From: Gammaproteobacteria bacterium
Lineage (GTDB): Bacteria; Pseudomonadota; Gammaproteobacteria; Eutrophobiales; Eutrophobiaceae
Reading direction: 5' to 3'
DNA: 64,000 bases
Assembly: GCA_016179185.1 (NCBI GenBank)
Contig: JACORW010000059.1
Location: 1,400-65,399 of the forward strand
Part shown: one piece after another, positions 38,581-40,694 of the stretch
How the letters are laid out: every line of letters starts with the position of its first letter
How positions within the stretch are numbered: the first letter of the stretch is position 1
The notes under the pieces: generated by a model
Told to the model about the DNA's origin: nothing
Databases searched by the model: none
Seen by the model: only the letters and a program-made list of their open reading frames with translations
Position numbers and translations under genes: made by a program

Positions 38581-40694
38581 CGGAACAATTCAAGCTGTTT
38601 CTTTTCGGGTGCCGGCGGATGAAACAGGTCAGTGCGCAGATCGAGCCGGCCGCGATTGAGTCCATGCCGTCGGCAGGCCAGCTCGAACCGGCTGCGGACG
38701 ATTTCGGCGAACGGTCCCTGCCCGCGCTGGCGTGAAAAGAACCGCGGATCGTTGTCGCGGCCGCCGCGCAGTTCCCGGATGGCGTTCATCACGCGCCGCC
38801 ACTTCAGCGGTTCGTGCTGCTCCAGCCATTGTTCGAACAAGTCCTTGATCTCGAGGGGCAGCCGCACGATGACGTAACCCGCCCAGCCCGCGCCCGCCTC
38901 CGCAGCGGCAGCCAGGACATCCTCCAGGGCAGCATCATTCAGGAACGGGATCACCGGCGCGAACAGCACACCCACCGGGATCCCGGCCCGGCTCAGGGCG
39001 CGCACGCATTCCACGCGCCGGCGCGGTGCCGCGGCGCGCGGTTCCAGGCGCCGGGCCAAATCGTGATCCAGGCTGGTGATGGAAACGAACACCTGCGCAA
39101 GCTTCCTGCGCGCCATGTCCGCCAGCAGGTCAATATCCCGCTCCACGCGCCAGGACTTGGTGACGACGGTGAGCGGATGATCGTGGGCGCGCAGCACCTC
39201 GATGATCCCGCGTGTAATTTTCCACTCGCGCTCGATGGGCTGGTACGGGTCGGTGTTTGCGCCCAGGGCAATCGGCGTGCAGCGATAACCGGGCTGCGCC
39301 AGTTCCTTCTTCAGCAGCATGGCAGCATCGGGTTTCGCAAACAGCTTCGTTTCAAAGTCAATGCCGGGGGAGAGATCCATGTAAGCGTGCGTGGGCCGGG
39401 CATAGCAGTTGTGACTGACCACGCCATTGGCAATGAAGTCTTCAGTGTCAGTTTGGATGTCGTACATGCGCTGCGCGCGACTGATAGGCTCAATCCTCAC
39501 GATATCGAGCCGTGCCGGTGACTTGACCGCCTGGCCGATGATGTTGCGCTTGCGCGCGATGGCCGGGTCGGTCAGGTGAAAGAGTCGCAATTGCTCCGGG
39601 AGGCCTCCCAGCAGCCGTAGCGACTGCACCGGCTTGTTTACGTCTTTACGGGGCGATTCGATTACAGGGCGGAATCCGAAGAACTTGAGCCCACGCACGA
39701 TCCAGTCGATGATTTCCTTGTCTGTATTGGTGATCCGCAGAACCGTCTGGCTGAAGGAGCCCTCTGCATCGAAAATCCCCGCCAGAAAACCCGCGTACCA
39801 TTCAGCACTCGGGTCCGCGGGCCAGGCGATCAGCCGGCGAACTCGATCCACGCCCTCCTGGGCATGATTTCGAATGCCGTGCATTGCACGCCGTCGGGCG
39901 CGTTCTGCCTGGAATACAAATGAATACGTCGCAATTCCGCAGTCGTGCAGGTATTCCTCGGCACGTCGCAGTGCTTCCGCGTCGCACAGGGCGAGACGAA
40001 ACTGGTGCTGATCCCCGTGGCTGCGGCCTCTTCGCTCGTAATGAAAGGAGGCCAACAGGGCATCACCGCGTACGACGCCGCATAGGTACCCGAGGCGATA
40101 CGCAGGCCCCTTGGGCATAGCAGCTGCAAACGCGCCGGTACCCATCATTTTATTTCCGGCCGTCAGGTGCGGACGCCGGGTTCGTCCCTGTTGCGTGCCC
40201 AAAACGAATTTCCAGCCCCGTTCGGTCAGAAATCTGTGATCCGGACCGGCCACAAGCTTGGTCCCGTCCTCCAGCGTTATCCGGTACGCGGGCTTGATGA
40301 CACTCCAGTGTCCTAGTACACGGGCTGGCGCATAGCGCCGGTACCAGCCTTTTCGAACTGTCCCATAGATTTGGTCGCCAGTCCTGAGGTCGGATAGGGG
40401 CCGCGTCGTTCCATCCAGCATCAGGATTGGGGTGTCCCCGGACAGGCAATAGACACACCCATGCTCGCATCCCCGGTACGGATTGATGGACGCTTCGAAG
40501 GGAATGTCCGGCGACTCGTTGCGGCTGATGATGGTGCGCGGGTGCTCGATGGTGACGGTCGTTGCCGGCGGCGGAGTGGCTTCATCGGGCGCCCAGCCAT
40601 CGTCGAAGGCCTCGCGCTGCCAGTCGAGGTAACGGGCAGCCACCGTCGAGTCAGTACCCCGACCCCTGACTTTTCCAGTCCTGGAGCGCCCCAT
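38577..40694 (-). CDS. PA0069-type radical SAM protein interrupted by an intein
   Basis: 705 aa. The exteins (82 + 276 aa) join to [21 protein letters not shown], the CxxxCxxC radical SAM motif. 4-nt overlap with zapE. Confidence 0.9.
   Translation of the reverse strand: [705 protein letters not shown]
39408..40448 (-). mobile_element. intein (347 codons) with LAGLIDADG homing-endonuclease domain
   Basis: Starts [13 protein letters not shown] and ends GVVSHN followed by +1 Cys. LAGLIDADG-like blocks [12 protein letters not shown] and [12 protein letters not shown]. Codons checked on the sequence: TGC at 40448-40446, AAC at 39410-39408 and TGC at 39407-39405. Confidence 0.9.

Follow-up and report, generated by a model that had tools for sequence, protein, structure and literature searches.

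The 705-aa ORF studied here encodes a radical SAM protein of the PA0069 family interrupted by an insert that is probably a genuine class 1 intein, within which a two-motif LAGLIDADG endonuclease is nested, and thus a selfish mobile element for which splicing and DNA cleavage are predicted. Observed directly are its anatomy (Table 1), the polymorphism between occupied and empty insertion sites, the conservation of its residues, purifying selection and horizontal movement. The window, that is, the whole 64-kb stretch of DNA that was analyzed, contains no other intein. The preliminary description had placed a full-length LAGLIDADG intein within the CxxxCxxC motif of a PA0069-type protein, and this placement was borne out by family models, intein-less homologs, invariant residues and fold matches.

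Table 1. Position in the window of the interrupted gene, its parts and its neighbors. Fractions refer to intein-bearing homologs.
Feature	Coordinates	Strand	Remarks
Upstream SirB1-like protein (Transglut_core2 + TPR_9)	40704..41582	(-)	9-nt gap; context only
Precursor gene, PA0069-family radical SAM interrupted by intein	38577..40694	(-)	ORF list; 705 aa + stop
N-extein, aa 1-82, ending C76-E-H-G-C80-V-Y82	40449..40694	(-)	C76, C80 and Y82 in 120/120
Intein, aa 83-429, 347 aa, class 1 (Cys1...His-Asn, then Cys+1)	39408..40448	(-)	
Block A with Cys1 nucleophile C83	40410..40448	(-)	TIGR01445 intein_Nterm; C83 in 120/120
Block B region with His153, Gly at the usual Thr position	40209..40262	(-)	H153 in 120/120
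LAGLIDADG homing endonuclease domain, ~aa 186-390	39525..40139	(-)	Pfam, AF2, Foldseek, pN/pS
LAGLIDADG motif 1, aa 201-212, putative catalytic Asp211	40059..40094	(-)	D211 in 117/120
LAGLIDADG motif 2 (FLAGIFDAEG), aa 303-314, putative catalytic Glu311	39753..39788	(-)	E311 in 119/120
Blocks F-G with Asp412, His428 and Asn429	39408..39470	(-)	TIGR01443 intein_Cterm; each in 120/120
Cys430, +1 splice nucleophile, third CxxxCxxC cysteine once spliced	39405..39407	(-)	120/120
C-extein, aa 430-705 + stop, remaining SPL-like radical SAM barrel	38577..39407	(-)	NF033668 positions 73-348
Downstream AFG1/ZapE-type ATPase	37480..38580	(-)	4-nt overlap; context only

The boundaries proposed for the insert in the preliminary description proved exact to the base. 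Across both junctions the protein reads GCEHGCVY/C...SHN/CYARP (the slash marks the insertion point), the insert itself running CLSGDT...VVSHN, and the start ATG at 40694 retains the N-terminal KGRG motif, R12 and G13 being invariant. In silico excision of residues 83 to 429 yields a 358-aa protein with a contiguous CxxxCxxC (C76-x3-C80-x2-C430), in agreement with the earlier claim that removal restores the radical SAM cluster motif. Also, the junctions and the contiguous intein-less homologs agree that the +1 Cys doubles as the third cluster cysteine, as had been put forward. The first two cluster cysteines are supplied by the N-extein, C80 being at position -3.

Regarding the host, the precursor scores 475.7 bits in two stretches against NF033668 (rSAM_PA0069, cutoff 360), and the spliced product matches model positions 1 to 348 without a break, at 494.1 bits. 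The Pfam Radical_SAM score likewise rises from 57.9 to 67.7 bits after excision (positions 1-164). The score against the spore photoproduct lyase (SPL) model TIGR04070 (18.5 bits) is below its cutoff of 400, and that of the precursor against NF038136, the intein-containing Rv2578c family, is also below the cutoff (468.1 bits versus 700). The nearest fold is SPL: the AF2 model of an intein-less relative matches structures 4k9r and 4fhc with E~1e-8 and a query TM of 0.51-0.52 over ~347 aligned columns at 17% identity. By its sequence, the host is assigned to the PA0069 family of radical SAM proteins (SPL-like, COG1533).

A search with intein and homing endonuclease models, which had been proposed as a check on the insert, gave scores above the cutoffs for TIGR01445, TIGR01443 and LAGLIDADG_3. 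TIGR01445 (intein_Nterm) passes only barely, with 24.7 against 24.5, and TIGR01443 (intein_Cterm) passes with 18.4 against 15.6; the Pfam model Intein_splicing falls short, with 28.8-31.2 against a gathering score of 35.8. The resemblance is not a matter of chance: the insert alone scores 218.9 bits (E=1.5e-64) against the intein segment of NF038136 (model positions 76-334), and its relatives at E<=1e-30 amount to 263 when clustered at 50% identity. Moreover, the Cys1, internal His, terminal HN and +1 Cys named at the outset are all found in every one of the 120 intein-bearing homologs compared, where C83, H153, D412, H428, N429 and C430 are invariant, and HN/C is present at the C-terminal junction in 71 of 80 representative relatives. 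Since a sequence search of solved structures returned only weak matches to the DnaB, RecA and PI-PfuI inteins (best E=0.015), a comparison of folds was needed, which gave a Foldseek probability of 1.00 to the PI-SceI, PI-PfuI and TliVMA inteins, the Hint part of the AF2 model being of moderate or low confidence. In this model, pLDDT is ~59-83 for residues 83-155 and below 50 for residues 156-184 and, at the two splice junctions, for residues 76-81 and 418-449, so that the junctions are too uncertain for judging the geometry of C76, C80 and C83 in the precursor.

A Thr in block B is frequent, not obligatory, among inteins. Block B of the insert aligns with that of DnaB inteins, and the Thr is absent: position 150 is Gly in 116 of the 120 homologs and Ser in the other 4, and farther relatives carry Ser here (consensus CSGDH). 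This replacement and the marginal scores of the generic intein models would be expected if the intein were decaying or splicing-dead and the host gene were effectively a pseudogene; the homing cycle also predicts that a fixed intein will degenerate, and some relatives carry mini-intein derivatives (P0218, P0238 and P0241). However, the ORF is intact, all nucleophiles and assisting residues are invariant in 120 of 120, and purifying selection acts on the exteins of alleles that carry the intein (pN 0.104, pS 0.569). The Gly is itself conserved and so represents a trait of the family rather than a lesion. Taken together, a dead intein is highly unlikely.

Both of the LAGLIDADG-like motifs that had been pointed out were located, and each of their putative catalytic acids is found in 117 or more of the 120 homologs, D309 of motif 2 being present in all of them. 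The domain scores 31.4-33.3 bits against Pfam LAGLIDADG_3 (cutoff 22.5) and is modeled by AF2 with a pLDDT of ~85-94, and its Foldseek comparison with I-DmoI gives a target TM of 0.71-0.77 and an rmsd of ~3.3 Å. Relative to the allele at locus L086, pN is 0.186 and pS 0.71 for the endonuclease domain, and pN is 0.104 and pS 0.57 for the exteins, values whose dN/dS is to be read only qualitatively because dS is saturated. At the level of codon comparison, then, purifying selection acts on the endonuclease domain.

An alignment to intein-less homologs shows that the region is absent from them precisely to the residue, so it is a true insertion, as first described. A contiguous GCxHxCxYC[FY]ARP is found at 75 of 80 intein-less genome loci; the scan gave intein-less loci only, contiguous matches ranking first, and the 80 loci are no measure of intein prevalence. 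Intein-less alleles (P0271-P0274) have 82-86% extein identity and intein-bearing ones (P0002-P0005) 83-87%, and P0273 reads contiguously through the insertion point. The site is empty in a close relative with the same gene neighborhood and 82% extein identity: at locus L084 it lies in the same Trypsin/PDZ-LysR-HAD-RmuC<>SirB1-like-rSAM synteny and its DNA reads AATCCCTACCGAGGATGCGAGCATGGGTGTGTTTAT/TGCTTTGCCCGACCCACACATGCGTACCTGGACCTT, whereas at L086 and L081 the site is occupied. Over the 72 nt compared at the site, the window and the empty allele share 85% DNA identity.

The identities of exteins and inteins are discordant, some pairs showing 64% in the extein and 91% in the intein and others 97% and 74%, the discordant pairs being metagenome-assembled proteins of which some are possibly chimeric. 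This strong disagreement between intein and host similarities indicates horizontal movement and, like the purifying selection on the endonuclease domain, lends the predicted homing cleavage indirect support. GC3 is 0.674 in the intein and 0.777 in the exteins; of the four neighboring genes checked, three have a GC3 of 0.79-0.83, and rmuC one of 0.70. The residue at +2 (Tyr or Phe) was considered as a homing-immunity polymorphism and discarded, as the nearest intein-less alleles mostly read CYARP too.

The gene arrangement had been described as a sirB1-like/radical SAM/zapE operon with 4-nt and 9-nt junctions, and both the gap and the overlap are correct. The upstream SirB1-like neighbor is syntenic in L081, L084 and L086. 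However, the arrangement is conserved only within the window's near lineage, and the operon context was dropped as a clue to function, on which it has little to say, because both neighbors are missing at 79 of the 80 intein-less family loci. Also, a scan for promoters and terminators gave nothing informative within the operon.

Within a large intein lineage that is already catalogued, the window intein is an unexceptional member. Hundreds of proteobacterial homologs carry the same intein, their NCBI title being 'PA0069 family radical SAM protein' with the intein unmentioned. Among 96 representative relatives, 82 have the insertion at CxxxCxx/C, and this position is used in radical SAM hosts of at least eight unrelated groups as well as in viral contigs, the hosts including PA0069, Rv2578c, DUF5131/gp37, B12-binding and other radical SAM proteins. 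The same-site inteins of different host groups are homologous, with 37-60% identity. Isolate phages and plasmids gave distant matches only (24-25% identity), and the 'radical SAM protein-like protein' of Virus Rctr197k was rejected as a same-site relative, its junction being different (...QRY/C ... KN/C). In the literature searched, no description was found of an intein lineage sharing the radical SAM CxxxCxx/C site. This site shared by many hosts and the Cys1-containing motif of the precursor are points that go beyond the original finding.

A LAGLIDADG domain binds DNA and the host family is tied to DNA damage, so that the insert might be imagined as a non-splicing, permanently integrated endonuclease or DNA-binding domain used by a repair-type enzyme; a WhiA-type domesticated LAGLIDADG fold (8dy9_I) is indeed among the weaker fold matches. 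Nonetheless, the insert splits the CxxxCxxC loop, whose contiguity is required for binding of the SAM cluster, it carries the full invariant set of splice residues at both ends, orthologs lack it with a precision of one residue, and unrelated radical SAM proteins harbor homologous inserts. Such a permanent domain is thus extremely improbable.

For the intein as a selfish element, the following sequence of events is proposed. Insertion into a PA0069-family gene would have occurred immediately before the codon of the third cluster cysteine, and translation would give the 705-aa precursor. Cys83 (Cys1) would attack the Tyr82-Cys83 peptide bond in an N-S acyl shift, the N-extein would be transferred to Cys430 (+1) by trans-thioesterification, and cyclization of Asn429, assisted by His428, would release the 347-aa intein. 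An S-N shift would then leave the 358-aa enzyme with a contiguous C76-x3-C80-x2-C(+1), able to bind the [4Fe-4S]/SAM cofactor. The free intein would cut intein-less alleles at the conserved ...TGC GAG CAT GGG TGT GTN TAT/TGC TAY GCC CG..., and repair of the cut allele would copy the intein in (homing). On this scheme, the insertion position would be due to the need for a Cys nucleophile, to the strong conservation of the DNA target and to the inability of the host to lose the insert imprecisely, and a regulatory role is not needed to explain it. The selfish model alone does not by itself explain, however, the fidelity to the same loop across many unrelated radical SAM hosts.

The unspliced precursor keeps a linear C76-x3-C80-x2-C83; the CxxxCxxC is formally intact there because Cys1 of the intein occupies the third position. 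With this arrangement, the precursor could conceivably ligate a metal or a cluster or form a Cys(-3)-Cys1 disulfide, so that the statement in the preliminary description that the cluster cannot be bound before splicing is to be taken as a supposition; by analogy with the MoaA intein a redox or Fe-S gating of splicing is a plausible hypothesis. One could then suppose a single homologous intein lineage specialized for the CxxxCxxC loop of the radical SAM superfamily, in which Cys1 replaces a cluster ligand and ligation or a disulfide hypothetically gates splicing by redox or iron status; as a whole this is a tentative and rather unlikely proposal. The shared site across host groups is the observed part of it.

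A related explanation is that the intein is retained for its benefit as a conditional splicing switch controlled by redox, iron or Fe-S status. Under oxidizing conditions, a Cys80-Cys83 disulfide could tie up the Cys1 thiol and block the first splicing step, as could metal or Fe-S ligation, and the oxygen-labile radical SAM enzyme would be released only under workable conditions. Consistent with such a switch, Cys(-3) and Cys1 are present in 120 of 120 homologs, and the CxxxCxx/C arrangement recurs across the representative relatives and host groups described above. However, the host motif fixes the -3 and +1 cysteines regardless of the intein, and for this reason their conservation is uninformative on regulation; close relatives manage without the intein; and the horizontal movement, the lower GC3 and the mini-intein decay products are those of a parasite in its homing cycle. 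The Pyrococcus abyssi MoaA intein, as described in PMC3922620 and PMC10663303, provides a precedent in its Cys-3/Cys1 disulfide. Moreover, family members are induced by DNA damage, PA0069 being one of the SOS genes of Pseudomonas aeruginosa (bioRxiv 10.1101/2022.03.14.484287) and Rv2578c having a LexA site (PMC3381160). Nonetheless, no LexA box of the form CTGT-N8-ACAG lies near the operon, a consensus that may not be that of this lineage. The sole match in the window (16334) is distant and at chance level, as 33 of 100 shuffles contain one, and a link between the operon and the SOS response through such a box was abandoned. Altogether, retention as a beneficial switch appears doubtful, and the selfish element described above is the preferred reading.

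The result matters mainly for annotation: the 705-aa product should be annotated as two entities, an SPL-like radical SAM enzyme of 358 aa and a mobile intein of 347 aa, and not as a fusion protein. The lineage is also a natural system well suited to the question of whether inteins in cofactor-binding loops act solely as parasites or serve as post-translational switches too: its splice nucleophiles coincide with Fe-S ligand positions, orthologous alleles are found both with and without the insert, and in model bacteria the host family is induced by DNA damage. Moreover, the predicted endonuclease, with a defined 20-30-bp target in a universally conserved motif, could find use as a rare-cutting enzyme.

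With respect to known systems, the closest is the intein of the sister Rv2578c family, which is homologous to the window intein and lies in the same host superfamily and COG. The window intein (residues 1-347) aligns with positions 76-334 of NF038136 and its +1 Cys with position 335. In P0132, a near-member of the Rv2578c family (675.8 bits), the intein shares 48% identity with that of the window over 347 aa, and the junction, RGCTHACSY/C...SHN/CFARP, has an identical insertion point. The window host differs in belonging to the sister PA0069 family and to an uncultured proteobacterium, whose nearest named relatives are Gammaproteobacteria MAGs. The same-site intein of the Rv2578c family is curated in NCBIfam NF038136, and 48 SplB/COG1533 inteins were listed by Novikova et al. 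2016 (PMC4760082), all in Actinobacteria, whereas the window intein is proteobacterial.

More distantly, PI-SceI, PI-PfuI and TliVMA appear to share the same Hint and nested two-motif LAGLIDADG architecture (Foldseek E 3.6e-11 to 1.6e-9). Against entire inteins the TM scores reach only 0.28-0.33, since the host domain is part of the query model and the junctions in it are modeled poorly. Sequence identity to these three and to I-DmoI is only 12-16%, their hosts are different (VMA ATPase, RNR and an intron), and the window intein has no extra DNA-recognition region of the size found in PI-SceI. The Asp/Glu catalytic pair of the window endonuclease presumably corresponds to D21/E117 of I-DmoI. 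The PDB entry titles for I-DmoI name E117A.

P. abyssi MoaA is itself a radical SAM enzyme. In its intein, a native Cys-3/Cys1 disulfide controls splicing (Callahan 2011, as described in PMC3922620 and PMC10663303). The same two papers report for MoaA the Cys(-3)/Cys1 CxxC that is also present in the window (C80-V-Y-C83, 120 of 120 homologs), and from the Cys-3/Cys1 pair the MoaA intein would be at the same motif position. Redox control is demonstrated in that case, according to these papers, and hypothetical for the window intein, and MoaA comes from another host family and another domain of life. Finally, Novikova et al. 2016 (PMC4760082) describe a clustering of inteins in the P-loop/ATPase motifs of replication proteins that are not orthologous, and in both cases homologous or analogous inteins share one cofactor-binding motif in unrelated host families; unlike the P-loop, however, the motif used by the lineage of the window intein binds an Fe-S cluster and not a nucleotide, and its same-site inteins are demonstrably homologous.

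The insert in the radical SAM gene is probably a selfish class-1 intein, competent for splicing, with a LAGLIDADG endonuclease that would be active or would have been so until recently; both splicing and cleavage are predicted from sequence. Its preliminary description as a full-length LAGLIDADG intein inside the CxxxCxxC motif was real and correctly interpreted. Translation of the ORF places the insert exactly at the interval first noted and locates both LAGLIDADG-like motifs, while its excision in silico leaves, as had been stated, a 358-aa protein with a contiguous cluster motif. 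A six-frame search of the window with a profile of this intein revealed no second copy. In the database, the gene call for the protein (P0001, 688 aa) places the start 17 codons past the ATG at 40694 (window 40644-40694) and so omits the family-conserved N-terminal KGRG motif, in which R12 and G13 are invariant.

Features of the radical SAM locus and its neighbouring DNA in the window
Feature	Window coordinates	Strand	Size or position in precursor
Precursor ORF	38577..40694	-	705 aa
Intein insert	39408..40448	-	aa 83-429, 347 aa
LAGLIDADG-like motif, first			aa 201-212
LAGLIDADG-like motif, second			aa 303-314
Low-GC intergenic region (GC 0.49-0.51)	36700-37480		
ORF without Pfam match	36774..37007	-	77 aa
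Sigma-70-like promoter match (10/12)	37100-37073	-	
RmuC-family DNA recombination gene	41622-43145	+	
tRNA-Gln (CTG)	49420-49493	+	

Intein and endonuclease models support the assignment. In Pfam, the full precursor matches Radical_SAM and LAGLIDADG_3 (31.4 bits, cutoff 22.5), with Intein_splicing under its cutoff; in NCBIfam, intein_Nterm (24.7, cutoff 24.5) and intein_Cterm (18.4, cutoff 15.6) are above theirs. Moreover, the NCBIfam host model rSAM_PA0069 matches the precursor with 475.7 bits split into two stretches, and the in-silico spliced protein with 494.1 bits in a single stretch (positions 1-348). The precursor also matches NF038136, the curated NCBIfam model of the actinobacterial form ('intein-containing Rv2578c family radical SAM protein'), the insert alone covering model positions 76-334 (218.9 bits, E=1.5e-64). 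In the AlphaFold2 model of the precursor (mean pLDDT 72.8), the endonuclease and radical SAM domains are predicted with high confidence and the two junctions with low confidence; the insert matches PI-SceI, PI-PfuI, the TliVMA intein and I-DmoI (target TM 0.71-0.77), and the host domain matches spore photoproduct lyase. This last match extends over ~347 columns in the model of an intein-less relative, 83% identical (pTM 0.79), where the cluster loop is disordered, as expected for a model without the cofactor.

A comparison with empty sites confirms the insertion. A scan of species-representative genomes gave 80 family loci, every one intein-less, and GCxHxCxYC[FY]ARP is uninterrupted in 75 of them. 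With the spliced sequence as query, intein-less proteins of 82-86% identity are found (P0271-P0274), and the precursor as query retrieves intein-bearing proteins with exteins 83-87% identical (P0002-P0005), so both types of allele exist within one narrow clade. For example, the gene of P0274, on the empty-site contig L084, has the same neighbourhood as the window gene, being ordered Trypsin/PDZ, LysR, HAD and RmuC, then the divergent SirB1-like and radical SAM genes, and the DNA of its empty site is 85% identical over 72 nt to the fused window flanks. The same neighbourhood surrounds the intein-bearing P0003 (L086) and P0006 (L081).

Residues were counted in 120 homologues that carry an intein, in every case at the same point. 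Cys1, block-B His153, block-F Asp412, His428, Asn429 and Cys+1 are invariant, and the putative catalytic acids are kept in 117 (Asp211) and 119 (Glu311); the block-B Thr position is Gly in 116, hence a family trait. Between the window and L086, non-synonymous differences are far below synonymous ones in every part (endonuclease, pN 0.186 versus pS 0.71; exteins, pN 0.104 versus pS 0.569), and, dS being saturated, endonuclease and exteins appear in a qualitative sense to be under purifying selection. At synonymous sites, the intein has also diverged from L086 more than the exteins have (pS 0.71 versus 0.57). A dead intein is thus very improbable and a domain that never splices more improbable still, since residue invariance, purifying selection and precise empty sites contradict both.

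The intein belongs to a widespread lineage. When it alone was searched exhaustively against 1.84 billion cluster representatives, 2012 relatives came back at E<=1e-3, of which 263 reach E<=1e-30. Among representatives with a visible junction, the N-junction is CxxxCxx/C (the slash marking the splice point) in 82/96 and the C-junction HN/C in 71/80. The hosts are PA0069-type proteins, Rv2578c-type proteins (P0132, intein 48% identical, same site), DUF5131/phage gp37-gp68 proteins (one a ParB_N fusion, P0144), B12-binding radical SAM proteins and several further radical SAM proteins of no assigned family. Their C-exteins form 11 similarity groups, three of them fragments or decayed copies, leaving at least eight distinct hosts. 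These groups have no detectable similarity to one another; their inteins at the shared site are homologous (37-60% identity, relatives P0121-P0270), and for 20/55 inteins the nearest intein relative lies in another host group. In P0187 (821 aa, B12-binding radical SAM), a related intein interrupts the motif one cysteine closer to the N-terminus, just ahead of its second Cys (SSRGCPYR/C...SHN/CNFC), so this lineage would be able to use either cluster cysteine as +1 nucleophile. Same-site inteins also occur in radical SAM genes on nine viral contigs from IMG/VR (L087-L095; for example, NPYRGCGHKCAY/CLDGDT...SHN/CYVPKV), the proteins being ~635-680 aa in eight and the L090 frame 1090 codons from stop to stop; viruses could transport the intein between hosts. 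The 1090-aa 'radical SAM protein-like protein' of Virus Rctr197k (L157, KX853510.1 19211-22480) has a distantly related intein-like segment (24% identity) with different junctions (...FMQRY/CLPGEA ... YATKN/CEGHKG) and no CxxxCxxC at the site.

Intein and extein similarities are discordant. Mean intein identity is 81% for pairs with >90% extein identity and still 67% at 55-60%, the extreme pairs being 64% extein/91% intein and 97% extein/74% intein. GC3 is 0.674 in the intein, 0.777 in the exteins and, among four neighbours checked, 0.79-0.83 in zapE, the sirB1-like and the EF-G-like genes and 0.70 in rmuC. Shortened inteins of ~157-290 aa occupy the same site in P0218, P0238, P0241 and P0148; the first three, the shortest, are mini-inteins that have lost the endonuclease domain, in line with the decay products expected from the homing cycle. 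Together, these data fit a cycle of invasion, spread, decay and loss.

Inteins are biased toward DNA-metabolism genes, and the SOS/LexA link of PA0069 and Rv2578c fits this bias. In P. aeruginosa, PA0069 has been reported to belong to the SOS genes (bioRxiv 10.1101/2022.03.14.484287), and Rv2578c has a LexA site (PMC3381160). No canonical LexA box was found near the radical SAM operon. The sirB1-like/radical SAM/zapE arrangement, whose 9-nt gap and 4-nt overlap were correctly described before, is lineage-specific, even a part of it occurring in only 1/80 intein-less loci. RmuC is divergent from these genes, with only 39 bp between start codons, and this adjacency is conserved in L081, L084 and L086. 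The 77-aa ORF corresponds in position to a 72-aa gene in L081, and the tRNA is the sole Rfam/ARAGORN RNA gene in the 64-kb window.

Novikova et al. 2016 listed 48 cases of inteins in 'SplB, COG1533, DNA repair photolyase', all from Actinobacteria, which puts it with the top bacterial intein hosts; they did not discuss the insertion site (PMC4760082). Proteobacterial homologues are named 'PA0069 family radical SAM protein' by NCBI and 'DNA repair photolyase' by IMG. The window intein adds a new proteobacterial member, from the PA0069 family, to this known allele, which is very common in metagenomes. Full-text searches gave no paper linking inteins to the CxxxCxxC motif, and no description of homologous inteins at CxxxCxx/C across radical SAM host groups was found in the searchable literature.

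The insertion position would be explained by an obligatory Cys nucleophile and highly conserved target DNA. The main rival, that splicing is gated by redox, iron or Fe-S, seems unlikely to us: the recurrence of the site, the CxxC geometry of Cys(-3) and Cys1 and the MoaA precedent speak for it, but the host motif dictates these cysteines anyway, so their conservation is no evidence for gating. The precursor retains a linear CxxxCxxC, its third position supplied by Cys1, and the bar on cluster binding before splicing proposed in the preliminary description need not hold. The single locus is ordinary; what merits a note is how faithfully this intein lineage keeps to the Fe-S loop across the whole superfamily, together with the testable idea of gating. 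Finally, in P. abyssi MoaA, likewise a radical SAM enzyme, the intein forms a native Cys-3/Cys1 disulfide, which stops splicing under oxidising conditions (PMC3922620, PMC10663303); the window precursor, with C80-V-Y-C83, shares this Cys(-3)-x-x-Cys1 geometry.
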